Shown here piece by piece: positions 1 to 10,288 of a stretch of 10,288 nt of DNA (positions within the stretch are counted from its first letter, which is position 1; the number at the start of each line of letters is the position of its first letter). Below the pieces are notes generated by a model. It saw only the letters and a list, made by a program, of their open reading frames with translations. It was not told the DNA's origin and searched no databases. The stretch lies in the UHGV virus genome UHGV-0355879; one strand, given 5' to 3'. The position numbers were made by a program, and so were the translations under genes. This DNA is from a virus.

Positions 1-1150
1 GATATAACTCATGCAAGTTATTAAACATTACTTTGAAAGCACTACTTATTATTTCATCTGATGTTGCTGAGAATGCCTTTATCAAATGCTTGCTAAAAGA
101 TTGGTTAATTTTTGATTTTTGTAACTCACTACTCAGCATAGCTAACAAGTCAAAATCTTTTAAAGATTCCTTTATCTCTTCATATTCCTCTATCGCATTT
201 GCTGAGTAAGGATCGAATCTTATAGGAAGACTCATAAATTTAGCCTTCATAGGAGATTCTTCATCTTCATCATTACCATGCAACTTAGCTTTAGTTACTG
301 AAAGGAACTCTTCTTTAGTAACAATATTGGTTTTTTGTTTCTGTAAAGTTAGCCCTTCATTTTCCATCAGTTTTTTACTAAGCAAAGTTAAAATCTTATG
401 AGCATCCTCTCTAGAGTTACAAAAAATAACAAAGTCGTCGACATAACGCTTATAGTTGATTCTATTCATAGACAATAATTTATCAATAGAATCTAGAGCT
501 AGTTCTGCTAATATTCTAGAGGCAGGACATCCAACTGGTACTCCATATGATTTTGTTTCACTAAATGTCTGTAGTAATTTCTTGATTTTCCCAGAGTAAT
601 CTTTATTGGGGTCGACTCTATCTAACGCATTTTCTAAACGGTGGTGATAAATACGCGGATAGAAATCTGCTATATCGCATGTAAGTACATACTTTATTTC
701 ATCGTTAGAACATTCAGAGATACTGTCTTCTTGATATTTTCTCCAAGAGATCTCTTTATCAAAAAGAGAACCATCAGCAAGGTTTGGTTTAAAGCGATAT
801 GAATAAACCTGCGTTTTAGTAGATCTATTCCTTTCAATATCATCAGCGATTTTTAAAACTAACCCAAGAAAAAAAGCATTCCAGAATGGATCAATTTGGG
901 TCGCCCACCTGTAACCATAATAACCAATACTTGAAAAGCTATTAATTATGTTTGGTGGAATCTCGATCCTTTTATTTTCAAAGTCATTAAATGTTTGCAT
1001 TAATGCAGTTTTTACTTTCTCCTTATCATCTTCAAATAACCGACTTTCAAATGGGTAAGGGAAAATATCTGTATCGCCGTGCTTTATAATATTTTCCAAT
1101 GCAAGCTCAAAGCAATTTTCTAGTTTACTACTATCAAACTCGTTACTCAT
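1..1150 (-). CDS. Reverse transcriptase, Abi/DRT-like (partial; C-terminal part lies beyond the left window edge)
   Basis: Absent from the ORF track because it runs off the edge. Minus-strand ATG at 1150..1148, open with no stop through position 1 (383 codons). Translation starts MSNEFDSSKLENCFELALEN. RT motif A-like TCDIADFYPRI (codons 650..676), motif B-like GVPVGCPASRILAELAL and catalytic motif C RYVDDFVIF (YVDD codons 434..445) were checked at nucleotide level. Start overlaps the integrase stop (ATGAGTAA, 1143..1150). Confidence 0.6.
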   Translation of the reverse strand, partial: MSNEFDSSKLENCFELALENIIKHGDTDIFPYPFESRLFEDDKEKVKTALMQTFNDFENKRIEIPPNIINSFSSIGYYGYRWATQIDPFWNAFFLGLVLKIADDIERNRSTKTQVYSYRFKPNLADGSLFDKEISWRKYQEDSISECSNDEIKYVLTCDIADFYPRIYHHRLENALDRVDPNKDYSGKIKKLLQTFSETKSYGVPVGCPASRILAELALDSIDKLLSMNRINYKRYVDDFVIFCNSREDAHKILTLLSKKLMENEGLTLQKQKTNIVTKEEFLSVTKAKLHGNDEDEESPMKAKFMSLPIRFDPYSANAIEEYEEIKESLKDFDLLAMLSSELQKSKINQSFSKHLIKAFSATSDEIISSAFKVMFNNLHELY

Positions 1151-2327
1151 TCACATTCTCCTTAATAAAAATATAATCTGAATACCACTGCATCATATCA
1201 CGGCGTTTATCAATATATTGAGCATGATTATACGTACCTCTAATATTATTCTTATCTATATGAGCAAGCTGTATTTCTATCCAAGCCGAATCATATCCTT
1301 TTTCGTGGAGGATAGTAGATAAGGAATGTCGAAATCCATGACCAGTAAGTTTTCCACCATAACCAATACGCTTGATAACTTGGTTAATACTCGCCTCACT
1401 CATAGGCTTGTTCGGATCGTTCCGCCCCGGAAAAACATAACTATACTTCCCTGTCATCATCTTGAGTTCATTTAGCAAATCTAACGCTTGAGTCGACAAA
1501 GGCACAAGGTGTGATCTGCGCATTTTCATCCTTTCAGCAGGAATTTCCCAAATAGCGTTATCTAAATCAAATTCTGACCATAATGCCGCACGTAATTCGA
1601 TGGTTCTAACACCTGTAATCATGAGCAATTTCGTGGCAATCAGGACAAGCCGACTTCCGGTATATCCGTTTAAGGCGCGAAGAAAATCAGGTATCTCATT
1701 AGCCTTTAAGAACGGGAAATGATTTGATTGGTGTACATTGAGGGCGCTTGAAAGATCCGCAGCAGGGTTAAACTCAGCCCTTCCAGTAGCAATGGCATAG
1801 CGGAAAACTTCTGAGCATCGCTGCCGAACTTTGCGCATTTTTTCTAATGCACCGCGCTTTTCGATTTTACGCAGCACATTAAGCAGTTCTAGCGGTTTAA
1901 TCTCTCCCACTGGCCTTGTTCCCACATAAGGAAAAATGTCGTTCTTAAACGCTTCCATGATGTCTGATGCATATCCCGCCGACCATTTGGTAGACTTCTG
2001 TTGATGCCACTCTCTGGCTATCTTTTCGAAGGCGTTCTCTGACTCTGTTTGCAGAGCCAGCTTTTGCTCTTTTCGAACCTCACTAGGGTTCTTTCCTTCT
2101 GCCACAAGTTTTCGAGCTTCATCACGACGGGAACGAGCATCAGCAAGAGTGATCGTTGGGTAAACACCAAGCGAGATCATTTTGGGTTTACCGGCATAGC
2201 GATAACGAAATCGCCAGCTTTTACTTCCATTTGGCTCTACAAGTAAAGACAACCCTTGCCCATCCCCAAGTGTATAGGCTTTAGCTTCAGGTTTAGCACG
2301 GCGAATCTGCATATCATTTAGGGGCAT
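1143..2327 (-). CDS. int: Tyrosine integrase, P4 / CP4-57 (IntA-like) family
   Basis: 394-aa ORF. N-terminal arm-binding region (MPLNDMQIRRAKPEAKAYTLGDGQGLSLLVEPNGSKSWRFRYRY) is typical of P4-type integrases. C-terminal catalytic signature present: R in GVRTIELRAALW, HGFRHSL box, LAHIDKNNIRGTYNHAQY with catalytic Tyr. Recalled E. coli IntA shares long stretches (AERMKMRRSHLVPLS vs AARMKMNRDHTVPLS; MMQWYSDY vs MMQWWADL). Confidence 0.85.
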   Translation of the reverse strand: MPLNDMQIRRAKPEAKAYTLGDGQGLSLLVEPNGSKSWRFRYRYAGKPKMISLGVYPTITLADARSRRDEARKLVAEGKNPSEVRKEQKLALQTESENAFEKIAREWHQQKSTKWSAGYASDIMEAFKNDIFPYVGTRPVGEIKPLELLNVLRKIEKRGALEKMRKVRQRCSEVFRYAIATGRAEFNPAADLSSALNVHQSNHFPFLKANEIPDFLRALNGYTGSRLVLIATKLLMITGVRTIELRAALWSEFDLDNAIWEIPAERMKMRRSHLVPLSTQALDLLNELKMMTGKYSYVFPGRNDPNKPMSEASINQVIKRIGYGGKLTGHGFRHSLSTILHEKGYDSAWIEIQLAHIDKNNIRGTYNHAQYIDKRRDMMQWYSDYIFIKENVNE

Positions 2328-2379
2328 GTGTATAGAATTCCAAAATCGAACAGGAACATATACATAATCCTATACACAT
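2326..2379. repeat. Imperfect 14-bp inverted repeat (ATGTGTATAGAATT / AATCCTATACACAT) overlapping the integrase start codon
   Basis: Arms at 2326..2339 and 2366..2379, 13 of 14 positions complementary, 26-bp spacer. The left arm overlaps the int start codon (2325..2327). Candidate operator, Int-binding site or att-proximal element. Confidence 0.3.
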
Positions 2380-2649
2380 TTAGTACTGGATTCTACTGGA
2401 AAGTTATGGACTAATACGAACAGTAAAAACAAAAAATCTTTTATAAAACAGTGCGGTTATGGATAAATACGGATGTTTGAAGAAGTGGAGATGGTGCCGA
2501 TAATAGGAGTGTAACACGCGATAAATCTTGTGTTCGGGTCTTCTTCTACGACCTTCGCAACTACCTGATTTAACGATTTTTACGCACACTGATAATCTGG
2601 CATTCATCATGCACATGATAAACGCCCCTAAACTTTAACGGGGTGGAAA

Positions 2650-3864
2650 ATGAAATACAAGCCGGATCAATACATCATCTCTGATAGTTACGGAGTTTAT
2701 TACGTCAGGATCTCAATTCCTATATGGCTTCGTAATGCATTTGGTGGAAGAAAAACTCTCGTCCGTAGTCTGAACACTTCCGATCTTCGTGTGGCACGTA
2801 GGAAGCGTGATGTTATAGCAGACGAGTTTCACCACATCAGGCAAATTGCAGAGCCACCAAAACCGGACAGCCTGCAGGACACAATCAGCTATCTAAAGAG
2901 CGTTGCTAAGTACGCAAAAGCTGCCCCGAAAGCATCAGCGCCAATTATCTCCCAATGCCCCTCTCTGAATAAGATGTTGGAGATTTACCTCACGCATAAC
3001 GCTGATCGCCTGAAAATTGGAACATTAAGCAAGACCAGGAAAGCCGTAGAACTGTTTCTGAATTACCTGCGAAAGAAGGATGTGGAACTAAACGATATCA
3101 ACCGTACCACCGTTACAGGCTGGCTTGATCATCTCCGAGAAACAAAGGCAGTCCAAACAGTGGCTAACTATCTTTCTGCAATGGCAAACATTCTCGATCT
3201 TGCCTCTTCCCGATACCAGGACGCCCCACAGCTGGAAAGTAACGTATTCAGAGGGCATAAACTCAACACAGCGCAGAGCCGCCAGAGTTACGAGGCATTC
3301 ACGGACGAAGAAATTACGAAGCTCATTAGCACGTTTAACAAGTTAGGAGAGGACGAATTAAGGGATTTAAGCGCCATAGCCGCTTATAGCGGAATGCGCA
3401 TCAATGAAATAGCCAGTTTGAAATCTGACAATATCCGTGAAGTTGAGGGGGTGTTATGTTTCGATGTATTGGAAGGAAAGACAGCTAACGCTTCCAGGCT
3501 AATCCCATGCCATAGTGCGATTAAAACAATGGTCCTGGAACGCTGCCAGAAGCCGCACAACGGCTTTTTATTTTACCGTGCAAGTGTGACCAAGAGAGAG
3601 GACGGCAAGCGCTCCTCATGGCACGTAAACCGCTTTGGACGGCTTAAACGCGATATTCTCCCAGGGCAAGAAAACAAGGTGTTTCACTCGTACCGCCATG
3701 CCGTGATCAGTAAGCTAAACGCCGCCGGAGTGGATGAATCTCGTATTGCCTTGCTCGCGGGCCACTCATTTGGAGAAACTGAATCTTTCAAGACGTATTC
3801 GAAATCCGTTCCTGAGCGAATAGTGAAGGAACTAAAAGAATATATCGAATTAATCAAATATTAA
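2650..3864 (+). CDS. Tyrosine-type site-specific recombinase / integrase (second, unrelated to the P4-type one)
   Basis: 404-aa ORF, GGTGGA-like RBS 4-5 nt upstream. N-terminus (YYVRISIPIWLRNAFGGRKTLVRSLNTSDLRVARRKRDVIADEF) matches the arm-binding pattern of genomic-island integrases. Catalytic residues in SGMRINEIASL (Arg), HSYRHAVISKL (His-x-x-Arg), LLAGHSFGETESFKTYSK (His, Tyr). Confidence 0.8.
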   Translation: MKYKPDQYIISDSYGVYYVRISIPIWLRNAFGGRKTLVRSLNTSDLRVARRKRDVIADEFHHIRQIAEPPKPDSLQDTISYLKSVAKYAKAAPKASAPIISQCPSLNKMLEIYLTHNADRLKIGTLSKTRKAVELFLNYLRKKDVELNDINRTTVTGWLDHLRETKAVQTVANYLSAMANILDLASSRYQDAPQLESNVFRGHKLNTAQSRQSYEAFTDEEITKLISTFNKLGEDELRDLSAIAAYSGMRINEIASLKSDNIREVEGVLCFDVLEGKTANASRLIPCHSAIKTMVLERCQKPHNGFLFYRASVTKREDGKRSSWHVNRFGRLKRDILPGQENKVFHSYRHAVISKLNAAGVDESRIALLAGHSFGETESFKTYSKSVPERIVKELKEYIELIKY

Positions 3865-3878
3865 AATACCTTAAATGT

Positions 3879-3908
3879 GAGGGGGAATCCCCCTCTATTT
3901 TATTTATA
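3879..3908 (+). terminator. Rho-independent terminator, probably bidirectional, between convergent genes
   Basis: Perfect 7-bp G/C stem GAGGGGG (3879..3885), loop AAT, CCCCCTC (3889..3895), then T-rich TATTTTATTTATA. Lies 15 nt after the integrase stop; the A/T-rich flank on the other side lets it serve the minus-strand gene ending at 3900. Confidence 0.55.
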
Positions 3909-4178
3909 CCATACACTTTGCATATATTGCGATGTTTCAGATGAAATATTATACCAATATGCATAATTATTTGTTGCATCTACAACTATCAATTTATCAT
4001 CACTATCCATCGCTTTATGAACTATTTGCGATGCCTGTTCAGAATTGTAATGTGAATTAACATACCAATTTGATTCTGTAACTTTGACTGCTACGCCCAA
4101 TGATTTAATAGCTTCGTAAACTGCTGGATAGTTTTTAGTTTTGATCAAGTCATAGGTTACAAAAAGATTGTTAGCCAT
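3900..4178 (-). CDS. Hypothetical small protein (92 aa), AT-rich
   Basis: ORF with GGAGAG RBS 7 nt upstream of ATG at 4178. Local G+C about 25% (hand count of 3901..3960), unlike neighbouring genes. No family recognised with confidence. Confidence 0.5.
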   Translation of the reverse strand: MANNLFVTYDLIKTKNYPAVYEAIKSLGVAVKVTESNWYVNSHYNSEQASQIVHKAMDSDDKLIVVDATNNYAYWYNISSETSQYMQSVWYK

Positions 4179-4197
4179 TTTATTCTCTCCAGAGATT

Positions 4198-4226
4198 CAA
4201 AAGAATAAGCGCCGCTATAGGCGCTT
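4198..4226 (-). terminator. Possible intrinsic terminator / stem-loop
   Basis: 7-bp stem AAGCGCC (4207..4213) / GGCGCTT (4220..4226), 6-nt loop. On the minus strand it follows the small ORF stop (4237) and is followed by ATTCTTTTG. Confidence 0.3.
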
Positions 4227-4236
4227 TGAGATGTTT

Positions 4237-4365
4237 TTATTTCTTAGCTTTCTTGGTAGGGATTTTGATAGTTTCAGTTACCGTAGTGTCAGGATGTCTT
4301 TTAGCTTCAATGGGCTTAACAAACTGACCAGTTATCGCAGAACGAACTACTGTTTTCTTAGCCAT
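4237..4365 (-). CDS. Hypothetical small basic protein (42 aa; MAKKTVVRSAITGQFVKPIEAKRHPDTTVTETIKIPTKKAKK)
   Basis: Internal ATG (4365..4363) of track ORF 4237..4467, preceded by GAGGT RBS 5 nt upstream. The longer 76-aa form would start inside the upstream terminator hairpin and lacks an RBS. Lys-rich, low complexity; could be non-coding. Confidence 0.3.
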   Translation of the reverse strand: MAKKTVVRSAITGQFVKPIEAKRHPDTTVTETIKIPTKKAKK

Positions 4366-4442
4366 AAAACACCTCATCTTGGAGATAAAGAGTGAACTGC
4401 TTACCCTTTTAAGAATAAGGGACAAACGAAGCGGCGTCAAAG

Positions 4443-4491
4443 AAAAAACACCACATATACACATCATTTACAAAACAAGCGCAATATGTGG
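4443..4491 (-). terminator. Candidate intrinsic terminator downstream of the 623-aa gene
   Basis: 8-bp stem CCACATAT (4451..4458) / ATATGTGG (4484..4491) with a long 25-nt loop, followed on the minus strand by TGTTTTTTCT (plus-strand A-run 4443..4448). Begins 26 nt after the stop at 4517. Confidence 0.35.
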
Positions 4492-4516
4492 TATCTCCAT
4501 GCGATTTACATCACAA

Positions 4517-6388
4517 TCACCCCCCTGTGCTGCTCTGACCGCTCAAGGCTGACAAGGTGAGCGACTGTGTAAAACTGGCTTGTGAGGCTCTCGCCTGGAA
4601 ATCAATGTAATCGCTCAGCCTTGAGCTATCGCTGGCGATAGTTAGCGGAACAGACGCTTCAAGATTGAGATTGAATACAGGTGCAAGATTGTACGCTGGC
4701 GCACTATTGGTGCTGGTTAGGGATGATATAGCAGAATCACGAAGCGCTCCCCCTTTCAGAGAATCACCATTCAGGCCGTATTGTTCTACCGCTGTCCCTG
4801 TAGGCTGATCATCTATCCCTAACCAACCTTTAACGGCATGACCTACACTACGGCTGTCCCACCCTGTCTTGTCCTGCACCCAATCGGCAGCACTGTTGGC
4901 ACTTCCTGTAACAGCACCATCATACAAACTCTGTGCCGCTGGCTTATCGCTACCAGTGAACCATTGAGGGAAACGTTCTTTCAGCCCTGCATTGATATCA
5001 CTCACAACACTGGAAATCTCACCCACAAACCCAGTGATTTCTTTCGAGAGATTGCCTAAGCCCTCTCCAAGCATTCCCGCCGCTTCGGTGATAATTTTGG
5101 TTTTCCTTACCAGATCGTCGCCCCCATCGGCAAAGCCTTTCATCCAGCCTGTAAACAACTGATTGTCTATTCCATTCATCAGATTACCCATAGCAACACT
5201 CAAATCGCCATACTCATAAACCTGCTTGATCATTTCGTCGTTCAGCGTCTGACCGGACTCAATGAGAGTTCTTAGCGTCTTGTTATACTCTGCACCGTTG
5301 TTCATGAACATATCGGTGTAGTGCATCAGGTCATCACCTAAACTCTCAATCAGCGTACCAATCTGAGCCTGTGACATACCACGGCGTTGCCCTTCATTCA
5401 CCGTAGCTTGAACAAAATCGAGTGGTGAATCTTGGAACTTGGAAATCTGATCCTTACTCCATCCAAATTTGTTCATTATCGACGTAATGCCACCATCCCC
5501 ACCCTTCCATTCGCCATTCTTCATTTGAGCATCGTTAACAGTCATGGCGAGGCGTTCACGCACATCTTTCATGTTATCGACGGCTTTTGAGGTATTAGCT
5601 GAATCAACACCGTGTTGCTGTCCCCAGGCCACCATCGTTTTTATGGCGTTTGGGTTGGTTTTCACACGTTCACTCATTCTCACCAGTTCGAGGTTATCAT
5701 TCCCTTTGTCAATAATTCGCTGCCCCACTCCGAGGGAGCCAGCCGTTAACGCAAGGCTTCCTAATACCCCACCACCGACGATAGGAGCATTCCCGCCCTT
5801 CTGAGCCTTTAGCTTAGTGGCTGCTGCGGCATACTGGGTACGCTGTGCCTGTGTCACTTTGGCTTGCTGTGCGGCTTCTCTGCGTAACAGGGTTACACGC
5901 TCACGAATAGATGCGTTCATACGGGCACTGGTCAGATTGCCTTTGGCAAATTCCTCTGTTTGCTGACGTATGAAACGTAACGCTTCATATTGAGATTTAG
6001 GATCAAGTCCGTATTTACCTTTAATTCCTGACACTTGTAGCCCTGCATGGCGAAGTTTAAGCTCGGCTGTCTCTTGGTGCTTCTGTAGCTGCTGCTTCGC
6101 TTTCAGATTGGCCTTTTCATCCCTGGCTTTCTGCTTCTCTGCCGCACGTTGGGCTTTCATTTCCTTCGTATCACGAGGTTTATCATTAAAACGTGCATCA
6201 TCGGCTTGTTGACGAGCTTTCTGTCTGCGCTGCTTCTGAGCCTGGAAGCGAATCTTGGGATCGGCTATTTTCTGGAAGTGCTTTTGAAGGTTATCCGCTG
6301 CGGCTTTAGCCAGAGCAATGCTCTGCTTATCCACCACGAATGTAACCGTATTGCGGATCTGACTGACCGAAATATCAAGCATCGCCAC
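4517..6388 (-). CDS. Large phage structural-like protein, tail tape-measure-like (tentative)
   Basis: 623-aa ORF. Lys/Gln/Arg/Ala-rich predicted coiled-coil N-terminal third (KQRRQKARQQADDARFNDKPRDTKEMKAQRAAEKQKARDEKANLKAKQQLQKHQETAELKLRHAGLQ), then a Gly-rich hydrophobic segment (GGNAPIVGGGVLGSLALTAGSLGVGQ) and repeated G-x-G stretches. The track start is GTG at 6388; an in-frame ATG at 6382 with GAAAGG 8 nt upstream is the more likely start and makes an ATGCTTGA overlap with the preceding gene's stop. Confidence 0.65.
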   Translation of the reverse strand: MAMLDISVSQIRNTVTFVVDKQSIALAKAAADNLQKHFQKIADPKIRFQAQKQRRQKARQQADDARFNDKPRDTKEMKAQRAAEKQKARDEKANLKAKQQLQKHQETAELKLRHAGLQVSGIKGKYGLDPKSQYEALRFIRQQTEEFAKGNLTSARMNASIRERVTLLRREAAQQAKVTQAQRTQYAAAATKLKAQKGGNAPIVGGGVLGSLALTAGSLGVGQRIIDKGNDNLELVRMSERVKTNPNAIKTMVAWGQQHGVDSANTSKAVDNMKDVRERLAMTVNDAQMKNGEWKGGDGGITSIMNKFGWSKDQISKFQDSPLDFVQATVNEGQRRGMSQAQIGTLIESLGDDLMHYTDMFMNNGAEYNKTLRTLIESGQTLNDEMIKQVYEYGDLSVAMGNLMNGIDNQLFTGWMKGFADGGDDLVRKTKIITEAAGMLGEGLGNLSKEITGFVGEISSVVSDINAGLKERFPQWFTGSDKPAAQSLYDGAVTGSANSAADWVQDKTGWDSRSVGHAVKGWLGIDDQPTGTAVEQYGLNGDSLKGGALRDSAISSLTSTNSAPAYNLAPVFNLNLEASVPLTIASDSSRLSDYIDFQARASQASFTQSLTLSALSGQSSTGG

Positions 6389-6572
6389 CGCCTTTCTTAC
6401 TCACCAGATAATTAAGTGCATCTGATACACTACGCCCACGATGTAATAACTGACGTAGATGACCGTGATCTATTTCAAGCACACGACACACTCCCGCCAG
6501 ATTTAATAACTCTTCTGCTGTTTCAGCATTTACGGCGAGGTGAAGCCCCGCGCTTTTTACAATCACTTGCAT
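6375..6572 (-). CDS. Hypothetical protein (65 aa)
   Basis: ORF with AGAGGA RBS about 8 nt upstream of ATG at 6572; immediately downstream of the capsid-operon terminator; stop overlaps the start of the 623-aa gene. Same orientation as the surrounding operon. Confidence 0.45.
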   Translation of the reverse strand: MQVIVKSAGLHLAVNAETAEELLNLAGVCRVLEIDHGHLRQLLHRGRSVSDALNYLVSKKGGGDA

Positions 6573-6596
6573 TTATCTTTCCTCTTATTCTGGAAA

Positions 6597-6630
6597 TAAA
6601 AAAGGGCGGGAACACTGGGGAGATGTTCCC
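6597..6630 (-). terminator. Rho-independent terminator downstream of the major capsid gene
   Basis: 7-bp stem GGGAACA (6608..6614) / TGTTCCC (6624..6630) with 9-nt loop; on the minus strand followed by GCCC then T7 (plus-strand A-run 6597..6603). About 65 nt after the capsid stop (6694). Confidence 0.5.
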
Positions 6631-6693
6631 AACGTTCACACGCCCTATTCAAAAGCCTGATTATTGCCTGCGGGTCAGGCTCCCGCTTGCTCA

Positions 6694-7725
6694 TTAAGCA
6701 GTGATGGTGATCTTCACTTGCATACCTAACGCATGGTTCACTGGTAATGCGCTGTTTTCGTGCATAACGTGGTAAGCATCGCCGCGCTCGCTCAGGTAGC
6801 CCCAAGAGTAGTATTCAGCAGGTGCAGCATCGATCAGCGCGAAGTTGCCAGAGGCAGCGCCGTAGATGTTCTGATAAGCATTTGTGCCTTTACTGAATAC
6901 CGGAACCGCCACCATGTCAGCATCATCTGGCATCTGTGCAAGGATCAGCGGATCTGTCACTTTAACAATGTCGATAGGCGCACCAGGTAGGCTAAACGTA
7001 CTAACACCAGGGAGAAGCTCGTGACGCTGGTAGAATAGGTTACGGTCGTCATATGGCGCTACATACTGGAACGCCTTAGACATACTGTCAGAGAAGCGAA
7101 TCTGGCTAAATGCAGCAGGTTTAGCGAATACGATCACTCGTTCAATCTGTCCAGCCAATCCACCTGCGGCAGCCTGAACTTTGTCTAAGATGGCATCAAA
7201 ATCCTGTGCCGCTGTCGCTGTGCTCACGCTGGCTGTCATTGGCACCACACCGAACAGTTCAGCATAAGAGATCAGTAGGTCATCAGTTGCAGGCGTATAA
7301 ACTTCACCTTTGAACAGAGCACGGGCCAGGTAGGATTCACGGGTACGAAGATAGGCAATCTTATGTTTCCCTGTGTACTCGGTGTACAGGTCGGTAACGG
7401 TTTGCTCGTAGTCCGTGCCTTGCACCCTTTTCCCTTGTACGTCTACTGGTTTGAAGGTGTCTTCCCTCGCAAACCAAGGGATCTCCACCAAATATTCTTT
7501 ACCATTCTGACGCGCGGTAGTGTCGTGGCTTGATGAATAACGACTCTGCGGGGTGTTAAACAGGCTGTAGTTATCATCCAGAAGCTGTGTCACCACCACT
7601 TTCGGATTCTGAACACCTACCCCGTCGAAGAGGTCGAGAGCATTCATAAGATAGTTACGTTCCGGCAGAGCCTGGAAGATTGGCGCTAAATCGACCATCT
7701 CACGCCCAATTGCGATTTTACTCAT
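6694..7725 (-). CDS. Phage major capsid protein, lambda gpE-like family (tentative)
   Basis: 343-aa ORF (lambda E is 341 aa) with AAGGAAG RBS 8 nt upstream. Sits directly after a roughly 120-aa decoration-like gene, the D-E order of lambda-type head modules. Assignment is by size, context and composition, not by verified alignment. Confidence 0.55.
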   Translation of the reverse strand: MSKIAIGREMVDLAPIFQALPERNYLMNALDLFDGVGVQNPKVVVTQLLDDNYSLFNTPQSRYSSSHDTTARQNGKEYLVEIPWFAREDTFKPVDVQGKRVQGTDYEQTVTDLYTEYTGKHKIAYLRTRESYLARALFKGEVYTPATDDLLISYAELFGVVPMTASVSTATAAQDFDAILDKVQAAAGGLAGQIERVIVFAKPAAFSQIRFSDSMSKAFQYVAPYDDRNLFYQRHELLPGVSTFSLPGAPIDIVKVTDPLILAQMPDDADMVAVPVFSKGTNAYQNIYGAASGNFALIDAAPAEYYSWGYLSERGDAYHVMHENSALPVNHALGMQVKITITA

Positions 7726-7741
7726 TATTTATCTTCCTTGA

Positions 7742-8101
7742 TTAAGAGGTGAAGAATGGACGGCATACGAACCCTTTGGATTCGAGCGTGGTGATAGCTG
7801 CGGCGTGATTAGCTGCGTGCAGGTTGTCGGCTTTCAGTGCTACGAAGCTGCCAACATTAGGCGCACGTAGGACATTCACGGTTTTACCGTCGCCAGCACT
7901 CACGAAATCACTTACCACCACAAAGGCATCATCGCCGGAGGTGTATAGAGCGCCATCAGCGCCGATAACATCGCCGCATTCAATATCTGCTGGCAGGTCG
8001 AAAACACGGCCTTCTACGACTGCAAAAGAATCAGTGGCGTAGCTCACTACGTCAGTGAAACTCTTACGAATTGGGAAAAGTTCGGTTAGGTCTACAATCA
8101 T
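7742..8101 (-). CDS. Head decoration protein-like (lambda gpD-like, tentative)
   Basis: 119-aa beta-rich, Gly/Val/Ala/Asp-rich ORF immediately upstream of the capsid gene (stop 7742, capsid ATG 7725). Start overlaps the preceding ORF stop (ATGA at 8098..8101). Confidence 0.45.
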   Translation of the reverse strand: MIVDLTELFPIRKSFTDVVSYATDSFAVVEGRVFDLPADIECGDVIGADGALYTSGDDAFVVVSDFVSAGDGKTVNVLRAPNVGSFVALKADNLHAANHAAAITTLESKGFVCRPFFTS

Positions 8102-8313
8102 TGTTGTTTGATTTCCTTGGATTTGATTGCGATCCGTTCCTGCATACTAAGTTGAGGTGTGTCCTCAGAAGGGAAATACTGGTCTACAGCTTTTTCTATT
8201 TCTTCAACGGTACATCCTGCCATTTCAGCCACTTTAGCTATTAACTCAGGATTAACTTGAATCACTTCGGATTTGTATTTTAGGATTCGGTCGCGATTGT
8301 TTATTAAGAACAT
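8098..8313 (-). CDS. Hypothetical protein (71 aa), first gene of the head operon
   Basis: ATG at 8313 preceded by AAGGAA with a 7-nt spacer; stop coupled to the next gene by an ATGA overlap. Confidence 0.5.
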   Translation of the reverse strand: MFLINNRDRILKYKSEVIQVNPELIAKVAEMAGCTVEEIEKAVDQYFPSEDTPQLSMQERIAIKSKEIKQQ

Positions 8314-8384
8314 TGTGTTGTTCCTTCGCGTTATAACTGCGTTTATCCTTCCATTAATAACGGAAGTGTTACATGCAGATTGTT

Positions 8385-8406
8385 AAAAAGGGGCGATTAA
8401 GCCCCT
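8385..8406 (-). terminator. Intrinsic terminator / attenuator upstream of the head operon
   Basis: Stem AGGGGC (8389..8394) / GCCCCT (8401..8406), loop GATTAA; read on the minus strand it is followed by TTTT (plus-strand A-run 8385..8389). Lies about 75 nt upstream of the 71-aa gene start. Confidence 0.45.
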
Positions 8407-8932
8407 GGAGAATATGCCCTTGTTAGAAAGCATTCTGTTAAAATCATTTTCGTTTCGGAGGATTATGATGTTAAAGAAAGGTTTCTTGAAAAAATGAAGG
8501 GCGCAACTGTTACGAATAACAGAAGTAGGATCGCCCGTCATTGCTCCCACTTCAAAACAGAAGCCCTTCTGTCATGGCGAGAAGTGGGAATGGAATTTCT
8601 TATCACCCTGGAATAGTAATAAGAGATTGCCAGCCTGAACGTAACTACCACTGACGGCGTTTATTCAGTCTGACTGCTTATAATCCTAACGGGGTTATAA
8701 GGTTTAGAGCACGGAATATGCTCTCTGAAAGAGAATGTGCGCGGTGATTGTTCGTTACCACCCGACACAAGTGGGAACGCCCGCGCCACCCTTTGGAACT
8801 AAACACAACAAAGGAAAACAACCAGCTTTCAGAGAGGATATTCAATGGGAGAGAGCGCCGCCTATGGGAAACGGCATTCTCAGGGAGTGCGTATTGTTAT
8901 ACGAGGGTGGAGTGATTCTAATACCTACCCTA
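8407..8932 (-). ncRNA. Candidate long untranslated leader or non-coding transcript (hypothetical)
   Basis: Roughly 525 nt between a near-consensus promoter (8939..8967) and a terminator (8385..8406), no minus-strand ORF of 65 aa or more. Contains several stem-loops: two-tier hairpin 8545..8589, hairpin 8677..8701, hairpin 8706..8724, hairpin 8739..8786. A 9-bp direct repeat AAGTGGGAA (8582..8590, 8769..8777) sits in two of the stems. Confidence 0.2.
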
Positions 8933-8938
8933 TAACTT

Positions 8939-8967
8939 ATTATGACACAAATAGCACAATATGTCAA
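8939..8967 (-). promoter_or_regulatory. Sigma70-type promoter on the minus strand (-35 TTGACA, 17-bp spacer, -10 CATAAT)
   Basis: Minus-strand TTGACA (plus 8962..8967), exactly 17 nt of spacer, then CATAAT (plus 8939..8944). Lies 16 bp downstream of the stop of the 113-aa gene and points toward the head operon. Confidence 0.45.
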
Positions 8968-8982
8968 GATATTTCGTAATAT

Positions 8983-9321
8983 TTATGTTATAGCGCATTC
9001 TTCCGCGATCTGGATGGCAAGCTCTCCGAGTTCAACGGTGATGTGTTCCATAGCGAGGGCAAGCTCCTCCATATCATTGGCAATGCGCCACGCCTGATCC
9101 ACGGTGACGGTATCCCCGTTCATCTGCACCAGGTGCTCTACAGCAGCATTCCAGTGTTCAAGGGCGGTGATTGCCTGTTCAGTGTATTGCAGCGCTTCCA
9201 GGAGCGCGGAGGGCGTTCTCTCACACCACGCCCTATTAACAAGCCACAGGGCTGGTAGATGCCAAATATCGTGGAAATAGTTAATTAGGGTGTTCATGGT
9301 GTCCATAGTTTTATTATTCAT
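8983..9321 (-). CDS. Hypothetical acidic helical protein (113 aa)
   Basis: Shortened from track ORF 8983..9468. ATG at 9321 is preceded by AAGGAA with a 7-nt spacer (as for the 71-aa gene) and overlaps the upstream gene's stop (ATGAATAA), whereas the 161-aa form would overlap that gene by about 155 nt. Confidence 0.5.
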   Translation of the reverse strand: MNNKTMDTMNTLINYFHDIWHLPALWLVNRAWCERTPSALLEALQYTEQAITALEHWNAAVEHLVQMNGDTVTVDQAWRIANDMEELALAMEHITVELGELAIQIAEECAIT

Positions 9322-9697
9322 TGTTGTTTTCCTTGTCGTCAAAGAGAATATCAAAATCTTGTATGTGGTGAGATAAGCCGTTAGTTTGGGAATACCCCAC
9401 CCAGTCAACATAGTTTTCTGCGTATAGCTGCCACTTCTTAAGATTCGATGAATCAACACGGTATTCACGGCGGCGGCGTGGTTTATAGAAGACGTTATCC
9501 GAAGATGCTAAAACATCCTGCAATAGTTCAAACTCTGCCCCTACGGGCACCGTTGCAGGGTATTCTATTATTTCGGTGATCCATTCTCCTGGAATAGACT
9601 CTCGTGCGAGGTCTTGTAGAGAAGAGGTGTATTTACGTTTGCTGGCGCGAGTGGCTTTTTCGATTCTAACAATGTTACTTCGTTCTTTTCGTCCCAT
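9314..9697 (-). CDS. Hypothetical protein (127 aa)
   Basis: ORF with GAGGA RBS upstream of ATG at 9697; basic N-terminus (MGRKERSNIVRIEKATRASKRKY), acidic C-terminus; stop coupled to the next gene. Confidence 0.5.
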   Translation of the reverse strand: MGRKERSNIVRIEKATRASKRKYTSSLQDLARESIPGEWITEIIEYPATVPVGAEFELLQDVLASSDNVFYKPRRRREYRVDSSNLKKWQLYAENYVDWVGYSQTNGLSHHIQDFDILFDDKENNNE

Positions 9698-9710
9698 TCA
9701 TTCCTCGTAG

Positions 9711-9797
9711 AGGGAAACTTCCGTGTTTTCTCGTTAATGTCCATACTGCGTAAAATGCAAATAACCAATACATAGCGATGATCATAAAAGTTTCCCT
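9711..9797. repeat. Perfect 10-bp inverted repeat AGGGAAACTT ... AAGTTTCCCT flanking the promoter region of the 127-aa gene
   Basis: Arms at 9711..9720 and 9788..9797, perfectly complementary, 67 bp apart, in the intergenic region between the wHTH-like gene and the 127-aa gene. Confidence 0.3.
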
Positions 9798-9806
9798 ATT
9801 GTGTGT

Positions 9807-10091
9807 TTAGAAATTAGAGTAGATAAATTCTACATTGTCTCGTTCGATGTGTTTCAGCGTGAATGATAGATAATGGCTTTCATCGTCGATATCGATCACA
9901 CCAATGTTGCGCAGCGCACGAAGCCAGAATCTGATCCCGTTATCACTTACACTGGATTTATCAGATAGCTCTCCGTAAGAAATTTTAGTTTTTCTGCCCT
10001 TCCAGAACCAGATAAGCGCATAATAAACGCCCTTCCCGCTATCGTTGATCTGTATCTGGTTTGTGTTGTTCAATTTTATGTATTGTATCAA
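9807..10091 (-). CDS. Putative winged-helix DNA-binding regulator (94 aa)
   Basis: TTG start at 10091 with strong AGGAGG RBS 5 nt upstream; GISYGELSDKSSVSDNGIRFWLRALRNIGVI resembles a winged-HTH recognition region. Family not identified. Confidence 0.45.
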   Translation of the reverse strand: MIQYIKLNNTNQIQINDSGKGVYYALIWFWKGRKTKISYGELSDKSSVSDNGIRFWLRALRNIGVIDIDDESHYLSFTLKHIERDNVEFIYSNF

Positions 10092-10104
10092 TTAGTCCTC
10101 CTGA

Positions 10105-10288
10105 TTAGTTCCAGTGGCGTTGTATTGTGGCGATCCCTTTCTTCATTAGTTCAGCCGTTTGTCTTTGGGTCAATCCTTTGGATTTGTGTTCCTGTACTTC
10201 TTTACGGGTGTTGTTACCTTTAACTTTCTTTCTCACTTTCCCAAATTTCAGACATTCAATCTTTGCTCCAGGGAAATAATGCTCTTTG
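10105..10288 (-). CDS. C-terminal part of a protein ending in an HTH-like segment (N-terminus beyond the right window edge)
   Basis: Minus-strand frame open from the window edge to TAA at 10105..10107; translates ...KEHYFPGAKIECLKFGKVRKKVKGNNTRKEVQEHKSKGLTQRQTAELMKKGIATIQRHWN. The final 25 residues resemble a short C-terminal HTH. Not in the ORF track because it runs off the edge. Confidence 0.45.
   Translation of the reverse strand, partial: KEHYFPGAKIECLKFGKVRKKVKGNNTRKEVQEHKSKGLTQRQTAELMKKGIATIQRHWN

Follow-up and report, generated by a model that had tools for sequence, protein, structure and literature searches.

Mestre et al. (2022, NAR; PMC9226505) equated the reverse transcriptase (RT) group UG7 with DRT type 8 (DRT8), noted UG7 in variable regions of P2/P4 and reported that a UG7 system gives robust protection against T5, which is abolished by RT and PD-(D/E)XK mutations. 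Rousset et al. (2022, Cell Host Microbe; PMC9122126, Tables S1A and S1B) listed the proteins WP_000064054 and WP_000622599 as P4 hotspot system #2, which has 294 occurrences among 5,251 P4 hotspot loci (Table S1B) and ranks second in frequency among the cargoes of E. coli P4-like satellites. Table S1B carries the remark 'RT belongs to UG7; protein 2 weak homology to nucleases'. That paper catalogued system #2 and, outside its Table S2, gave no sign of having validated it. DRT8 is common, being present in this share of P4 hotspots and in about 2% of the complete genomes of E. coli, and it belongs to the DRT types whose biochemical mechanism is still undescribed; a 2026 review describes it as a 'dedicated mechanism not yet established'.

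Several other RTs provide points of comparison. DRT4 (UG15) and DRT6 (UG12) are single-gene Class 1 UG/Abi polymerases that consist of an RT and alpha-helical repeats, are active against T5 and lead to toxic ssDNA accumulation with no separate effector gene (PMC12783706); DRT4 primes from the palm residue Tyr125 (PMC12783706). AbiA, AbiK and Abi-P2 have a helical C-terminal domain (PMC9508834, PMC11077055). In AbiA, priming starts from Tyr298/303, which lie in the flexible stretch joining the RT and helical domains (PMC11077055), and the protein features a fused, inactive HEPN domain, while Abi-P2 is cargo of P2-like prophages. In DRT1 (UG1 RT-nitrilase; NSMB 2026, PMC13275509), an attached effector is under the control of a DNA adduct that is protein-primed and template-free; this effector is a fused nitrilase, which assembles into filaments.

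We assign the locus described here to DRT8 (UG7), and put at about 90% the probability that its RT and a partner gene beyond the window constitute this known two-gene anti-phage system, carried as P4 satellite cargo. As in the published DRT8 (PMC9226505), the RT matches the Drt8 profile from end to end and is accompanied by an RT-associated PD-(D/E)XK partner, the two form a single operon with overlapping genes, and the system resides on a mobile element in an E. coli host; no difference was found. Rousset system #2 (PMC9122126) likewise has identical proteins and the same place within a P4-like satellite, flanked by the integrase gene (int) and psu, with no difference. Publications of 2022 already covered the exact proteins, the UG7/DRT8 family, the nuclease partner, the family-level phenotype and the P4 hotspot position; the finding, though correct, is thus an ordinary one. 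An earlier note, made by reading the raw sequence alone, had rightly recognised a defence RT in the satellite cargo slot. Defence against T5 is a family-level phenotype from the literature, putative for the present allele.

The satellite border and its first cargo gene

The window is the whole stretch of viral DNA that was analysed (10,288 nt, UHGV-0355879). Its positions 1-2510 make up the left end of a P4-like phage satellite whose integration site is the E. coli tRNA gene thrW. The minus strand reads from an attachment-site copy through int to the first gene of the variable psu-int cargo hotspot, with the following features:

1..1150, minus strand: 5' 70% of the RT gene assigned to DRT8 (UG7), codons 1-383 of 542 (translation and profiles)
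203..214, minus strand: DPYS, aa 313-316, flexible linker between the RT and the helical-repeat domain (invariant in a 47-sequence alignment)
445-434, minus strand: catalytic YVDD, aa 236-239 (translation; YxDD intact)
676-650, minus strand: RT motif DIADFYPRI, aa 159-167, first catalytic Asp region (translation)
1143..1150, minus strand: 8-nt overlap ATGAGTAA of the RT start codon and the int stop codon (int TAA at 1145-1143)
1158..1163, minus strand: RT Shine-Dalgarno AAGGAG, 7 nt before the ATG and inside the last int codons
1143..2327, minus strand: P4-type tyrosine integrase, 394 aa (Pfam domains, see below)
2492..2510, minus strand: 19-nt 3' end of tRNA-Thr (thrW), ACTCCTATTATCGGCACCA, attachment-site copy and left border of the satellite

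A tRNA scan detected no intact tRNA in the window, and the attachment site emerged only because ACTCCTATTATCGGCACCA exactly matches the annotated thrW 3' end in one comparison locus (L004). The same 19-mer also lies upstream of int in four further loci (L001, L002, L003 and L005). The integrase features the Pfam domains Arm-DNA-bind_3 (9e-28), Phage_int_M (2e-35) and Phage_integrase (1.2e-25). Its last eight or so residues are encoded by cargo-specific DNA: the int tails diverge past ...MMQWYS(D/N)Y, and homology to other P4-like int genes at the nucleotide level stops between window positions 1215 and 1150.

The RT ORF starts with an ATG at 1150-1148 and stays open as far as window position 1 (383 codons). 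It ends there at the edge of the window, not of the genome, and the identical E. coli gene has 159 further codons. The window holds only the attachment site, int and part of the cargo, and the remaining satellite genes were read from near-identical loci. In total, 105 complete E. coli genomes carry window positions 1-2534 at 99.8% identity, and the gene order in E. coli CRE1540 is int, RT (542 aa), a 246-aa ORF, psu, ogr/delta and, further on, the alpha primase-helicase. A full P4-like element is present in L001, with the cargo between a P4-type int and psu and with delta, sid-like and alpha primase genes, and psu Pfam matches follow the cargo in L005 and L007. The proposal that the RT occupies the cargo position of a P4-like satellite next to int is borne out by both the hotspot of Rousset et al. 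and the CRE1540 gene order. The RT C-terminus and the nuclease gene lie outside the window, and their presence is deduced from the 100%/99.8% identity to complete genomes.

The int-RT junction

The RT begins 8 nt before the end of int on the same strand (ATGAGTAA), just as the earlier note had reported, and a 97%-identical Citrobacter locus keeps this overlap. Int and RT could on this basis be read as one functional unit with stoichiometric coupling, in which the RT takes part in satellite integration/excision or the integrase in defence. A crude consensus scan, and hence a weak test, found no sense-strand sigma-70-like promoter between the int and RT starts, which would suit such a unit. The reading is nevertheless highly improbable, as the junction is unconserved: C. 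portucalensis has a 2-nt gap (TAA-GA-ATG) after a different P4-type int, the Brenneria RT lies 185 nt downstream of an unrelated Integrase_1-type gene, and no integrase was detected beside a Bacteroidota homologue within 344 nt of upstream sequence. The RT also has its own AAGGAG, and an identical TAAGGAGA lies ahead of the RT of Citrobacter and ahead of that of Brenneria, whose upstream DNA is not a P4 int. Conversely, a P4-like element in EDL933 has an equally tight int junction with unrelated cargo, while other cargo is convergent to int. As Mestre et al. 2022 is read here, RT and nuclease suffice for defence.

Because the junction differs in this way among DRT8 relatives, the int-RT overlap is, judged by sequence comparison, incidental and not a DRT8 feature. 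The left boundary of the cargo cassette would fall within the last ~25 nt of int, and the overlap would arise from this position. Since a strong Shine-Dalgarno sequence of its own precedes the RT, translational coupling to int, which the earlier note had thought probable, would be possible but is not needed. Co-transcription with int is plausible: the cassette appears to supply its own ribosome-binding site without a detectable promoter, so read-through from the int promoter probably accounts for RT transcription.

Identity of the RT and its partner

The two RT motifs named in the earlier note are present, and alignment of 47 RT homologues showed that D159, I160, D162, F163, Y164 and R166 of DIADFYPRI and V237, D238 and D239 of YVDD are invariant. 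The HMM searches proposed in that note returned Pfam RVT_1 for the RT fragment (E=7e-19) and PADLOC Drt8 (443.5 bits, E=3.7e-133, profile 4-352/493), with the next-best PADLOC family at 123.5 bits (E=2.6e-36). The window fragment (383 residues) shows 100% identity to the start of E. coli WP_000064054 (residues 1-383 of 542 aa), and this full-length protein matches Drt8 over profile positions 4-492/493 (551.9 bits). The RT is a 542-aa protein of the Class 1 UG/Abi kind, with an RT domain and C-terminal alpha-helical repeats (HEAT-like, alphaRep). In an AlphaFold2 model (pLDDT 88.4), all-helical repeats span residues 319-541, of which about 65 residues are within the window. The tail that follows YVDD in the window is mostly helical in this model, as claimed before, and is 144 residues long.

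A C-terminal domain and a partner gene had been predicted off-window, and near-identical loci contain both, in the form of the 159 further RT codons and the 246-aa ORF. This ORF matches RTasPDDEXK (E=5.5e-69) and has the residues D152...E161-I-K163, which identify it at the sequence level as a PD-(D/E)XK nuclease-like effector, the adjacent gene expected of the cluster 17 variant of UG7. It has no significant match in Pfam and no sequence relative in the PDB. The nuclease start overlaps the RT stop (ATGA), an overlap kept in relatives down to 44% identity, and the pairing of an RT with RTasPDDEXK also occurs in four relatives.

The earlier note had further suggested a possibly unclassified RT system, which would be new to the DRT/UG catalogue. 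In favour of this, Pfam and NCBIfam gave only generic or sub-threshold matches to the RT and RefSeq labels the pair just as 'RNA-directed DNA polymerase' and 'hypothetical protein'. However, the dedicated PADLOC models Drt8 and RTasPDDEXK both match end to end, and the identical sequences are assigned to UG7 in Table S1B of Rousset et al., so the system is not an unclassified one.

A classical retron, whose RT reverse-transcribes a neighbouring msr/msd ncRNA to yield msDNA that restrains an effector, merits scarcely any credence. Retrons are also found in P4-like hotspots (Rousset 2022, PMC9122126) and retron RT models do match weakly, but the 57.3 bits of retron_St85_RT are far under the curated cut-off of 235, compared with about 440-550 bits for the Drt8 model. 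As the earlier note had argued in favour of a UG/Abi/DRT-type RT, the DNA upstream of the RT offers no intergenic stretch for such an ncRNA; in addition, a C-terminal domain of helical repeats is characteristic of Class 1 UG/Abi RTs. Rfam gave no match in the window (gathering threshold) or in the full 4.4-kb locus (E<=0.1), and because both scans were empty we conclude that these sequences contain no Rfam-known retron, group II intron or DRT-type ncRNA.

Equally negligible is an RT of a mobile retroelement, either a group II intron maturase or a diversity-generating retroelement: the weak group_II_RT_mat match (79.3 bits) and the group II intron RT domains among fold matches to the RT core are outweighed by the curated cut-off of 300 bits, the lack of an intron RNA family in the window or full locus (Rfam), the lack of a maturase X or endonuclease domain in a protein whose tail consists of helical repeats as in Abi polymerases, and the lack of a template/variable repeat pair in the 4.4-kb locus, where only chance repeats of 20-32 nt occur.

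Related polymerases and a proposed mechanism

We compared the RT to described structures and phage sequences. No DRT8 relative of the RT was found in the PDB, where the best matches cover only the RT core (E~1e-10). The top full-length fold matches were UG15/DRT4, DRT6, Abi-P2, AbiA and AbiK, all moderate (TM 0.5-0.6). DRT4 and DRT6 are the best of these (TM 0.5-0.63), although their sequence identity to DRT8 is only 13-16% and DRT8, unlike them, needs a PD-(D/E)XK nuclease. AbiA, AbiK and Abi-P2 belong to the same fold class; with 72-83 bits on the RT for the AbiP2 and AbiK profiles, versus 444-552 for Drt8, they form separate UG/Abi groups. Where AbiA has its fused HEPN domain, DRT8 has a separate, required nuclease. 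Like Abi-P2, DRT8 is mobile-element cargo. A megablast search with the whole window gave no match in phage genomes, and tblastn with the RT gave only weak Abi-P2-type matches (25-32% identity), so DRT8 is absent from deposited phage records.

By analogy with DRT4, DRT6, Abi-P2, AbiA and AbiK, synthesis of single-stranded DNA by this RT is probably protein-primed and template-independent. The likely primer would be a conserved tyrosine, either Tyr315 in the linker between the RT and the repeats or Tyr118; these candidate tyrosines are both invariant among the 47 homologues. Tyr315 (encoded at window 208-206) lies within the invariant DPYS loop, at the position where AbiA has its flexible priming region, and residues 314-316 have a pLDDT of <50 against a model mean of 88. 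We therefore hypothesise, from the AbiA parallel, that Tyr315 is a candidate priming tyrosine, whereas in DRT4 the palm residue Tyr125 has this role. DRT1 offers a possible logic for the subsequent step, albeit with a fused, filament-forming nitrilase unlike the DRT8 effector: phage infection probably alters the DNA adduct, which would release or activate the nuclease and halt phage replication. In DRT4, DRT6 and DRT9 the trigger is ORF55, the ssDNA-binding protein of T5. For DRT8, both DNA synthesis and nuclease gating are suggested by analogy only.

A combined proposal, in which invariant Tyr315 primes a template-free adduct that gates the PD-(D/E)XK nuclease while promoterless, co-directional P4 cargo uses read-through from the int promoter, is tentative and on balance doubtful. 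If the Tyr315 part were true, DRT8 would combine an AbiA-type priming site with DRT1-like effector control; if the read-through part were true, defence levels would be tied to integrase autoregulation. The base composition also changes between the two genes, with a G+C content of 32.5% for the RT part versus 43.1% for int; the first 60 nt of the RT, for which a hand count had given about 27%, have a computed value of 31.7%.

Identity of the reverse transcriptase and its satellite locus

The left part of the window carries two overlapping genes, in which the following features were located:

1143-2327, minus strand: int, a tyrosine integrase of 394 aa (Pfam Arm-DNA-bind_3 9e-28, Phage_int_M 2e-35, Phage_integrase 1.2e-25; together the P4-type domain set)
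1145-1143, minus strand: int stop codon, TAA
1150-1148, minus strand: ATG of the reverse transcriptase (RT) ORF, 383 codons, open to window position 1 (translation; Pfam RVT_1 7e-19)

Translation bore out an earlier note that had described two same-strand ORFs, RT motifs (DIADFYPRI, residues 159-167; YVDD, residues 236-239) and an 8-nt overlap, ATGAGTAA, which is common to the int 3' end and the RT start. The RT part is AT-rich, as claimed (32.5% G+C versus 43.1% for int), although its first 60 nt have a G+C content of 31.7%, slightly above the hand count of about 27%.

PADLOC searches identified Drt8 as the best profile for the RT fragment (443.5 bits, E = 3.7e-133, profile positions 4-352 of 493), with UG21 as the next-best family (123.5 bits). 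For this fragment, every NCBIfam model of Drt2-5, of retron RTs and of group II intron maturases scored far under its curated cut-off. Neither the window nor the 4.4-kb locus contained a detectable ncRNA family, intron RNA or DGR-type repeat. Both results agree with this not being a retron, group II intron or diversity-generating retroelement. Residues 1-383 of WP_000064054, an Escherichia coli protein of 542 aa, agree with the fragment at 100% identity, and the full-length protein covers the Drt8 profile from end to end (551.9 bits). A homology search returned 2,181 relatives at E ≤ 1e-10, and the best 120 of these are nearly all 530-560 aa long.

The window segment 1-2534 was found in 105 of 5,426 complete E. 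coli genomes at 99.8% identity. In E. coli CRE1540, a 246-aa ORF lies directly 3' of the RT gene, where its ATG overlaps the RT stop (ATGA), and is followed by psu, ogr/delta, a sid-like gene, regulators and the P4 alpha primase-helicase. This element is a complete P4-like satellite that ends at the yagP pseudogene adjoining paoD. The 246-aa protein matches the PADLOC model for RT-associated PD-(D/E)XK nucleases (5.5e-69) and carries D152...E161-I-K163. A GC-rich spacer of 300 nt separates the nuclease gene from psu (CRE1540 locus 15751-16052, off-window); it contains GCTCCCCCCGCCACGCC, which may resemble a P2/186-type cos end. This would fit the cos-adjoining position of the P4 hotspot (Rousset et al. 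2022, PMC9122126).

The psu-int interval of P4-like satellites is an anti-phage system hotspot, and the pair 'RVT_1 + hypothetical, WP_000064054 + WP_000622599' is entered many times in Table S1A of the same study (Rousset et al. 2022, PMC9122126). In its Table S1B the pair is system #2 (294 occurrences); the two protein sequences printed there are the same, and a remark assigns the RT to UG7 and calls protein 2 weakly nuclease-like. UG7 belongs to the Class 1 UG/Abi RTs, has a variant associated with PD-(D/E)XK, has been noted in P2/P4 variable regions, and was named DRT type 8 (DRT8); it confers robust protection against T5, and mutating the active site of the RT, or that of the nuclease, abolishes this protection (Mestre et al. 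2022, PMC9226505). The RT system is already known: it is classified, catalogued in exactly the same position and validated at family level. The prediction of a DRT/UG-type defence RT as P4 satellite cargo with an off-window partner was right in kind, but the suggestion of a possibly unclassified system was superseded by the Drt8 match and Table S1B.

The junction between int and its cargo

One genome scan provided four DRT8 relatives, plus a distant RT match (27% identity) that was left out of the comparison. The Citrobacter sp. relative (97% identity) shares both the P4-type int and the 8-nt overlap, and the C. portucalensis relative (78%) has a different P4-type int and a TAA-GA-ATG junction. 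In the Brenneria relative (85%), where the RT starts with GTG, the gene 185 nt upstream is of the Integrase_1 family. No integrase was seen within the 344 nt available upstream of the Bacteroidota MAG relative (44%). All four have a nuclease gene that overlaps the stop of the RT, and TAAGGAGA is found 5' of the RT start even in loci with unrelated upstream DNA.

The P4-type Int proteins of different satellites are alike up to ...MMQWYS(D/N)Y and diverge over their last 6-9 residues, while nucleotide homology with other int genes ends between window positions 1215 and 1150. In the EDL933 P4-like element, whose unrelated cargo is an ABC-three-component system, AAGGAG occurs in the last int codons, followed by TAA and a GTG 3 nt later. 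As the junction layout varies among DRT8 relatives and recurs with unrelated cargo, the int/RT overlap is a product of the site at which cargo cassettes join int, and not a property of DRT8. The C-terminal 6-9 residues are cargo-specific in P4-type integrases (window 1143-1215; 7200-7246 in the E. coli N18-04097 locus; 7200-7262 in a further P4-like locus).

No sense-strand promoter turned up inside int in a consensus scan, so it is plausible that the RT is transcribed by read-through from the int promoter. The proposed translational coupling is possible but not needed, because the RT has its own strong Shine-Dalgarno sequence (AAGGAG, 7 nt 5' of the ATG). The same AAGGAG/start layout in EDL933 suggests that hotspot cargo co-directional with int is, in general, transcribed along with it; the SIR2 cargo of N18-04097 is convergent to int.

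Structural model and a possible mechanism

An AlphaFold2 model of a 97%-identical representative, made with a 47-sequence alignment, had a mean pLDDT of 88.4 and placed helical repeats (residues 319-541) after an RT core. Its closest full-length matches among solved structures (TM 0.4-0.63) were UG15/DRT4, DRT6, Abi-P2, AbiA and AbiK, all of which are protein-primed, template-independent DNA polymerases (PMC12783706, PMC9508834, PMC11077055). The only very low-confidence segments were residues 293-298 and 314-316, and the latter coincides with a DPYS motif that is invariant in the alignment (RT residues 313-316; window 203-214, minus strand). This loop, which joins the RT domain to the helical repeats, is presumably flexible, judging from the model, and corresponds to the flexible region of AbiA that contains its priming residues, Tyr298/Tyr303 (PMC11077055). 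Since the priming residue of DRT4 is Tyr125, located in the palm (PMC12783706), the invariant Tyr118 (window 799-797) is a second, alternative candidate priming residue.

A 2026 review states that for DRT8 a 'dedicated mechanism [is] not yet established'. Given these fold relatives and the invariant tyrosines, we propose by analogy that DRT8 would make covalently attached, untemplated ssDNA, that infection would alter this product, and that the PD-(D/E)XK nuclease would be an effector under its control. All that has been published is the need for the two active sites; the remainder is analogy.

Tandem elements at thrW

The remainder of the window starts near remnants of thrW, a tRNA-Thr gene:

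2492-2510, minus strand: thrW 3' end, 19 nt, ACTCCTATTATCGGCACCA, ~165 nt upstream of int
2650-3864, plus strand: second-element integrase with a DUF6538 N-terminus
3900-4178, minus strand: second-element ORF of 92 aa (phrog_1090; weak Cas2_II match)
4517-6388, minus strand: second-element tape-measure-like protein of 623 aa (phrog_16051 4e-97; RefSeq 'TolA')
6694-7725, minus strand: second-element capsid-E-like protein

Positions 2535-10288 belong to a second integrative element, unrelated to the P4-like satellite and placed back-to-back with it; the integrase of this element is its own and is divergently oriented. Parts of the element are present in approximately 197 E. coli genomes, and strain XYEH3934 carries it alone between thrW and yagP'. 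With the satellite to the left of 2535 and a separate element to the right, the window straddles the junction of two elements in a tandem array at thrW. A tRNA scan found no intact tRNA in the window. A second thrW fragment, GCGAAGGTCGTAG, lies ~35 nt further upstream of the 19-nt one, with unrelated sequence between them (window 2492-2560, minus strand), and together they resemble a scar left when elements integrated successively at one tRNA. Tandem satellites seem to dock at thrW recurrently. At the same site in N18-04097, a P4-like satellite has a different neighbour (1875-5746 of that locus) with capsid, HNH endonuclease and integrase genes, and the P4 hotspot there holds a convergent SIR2-family gene encoding 1,034 aa.
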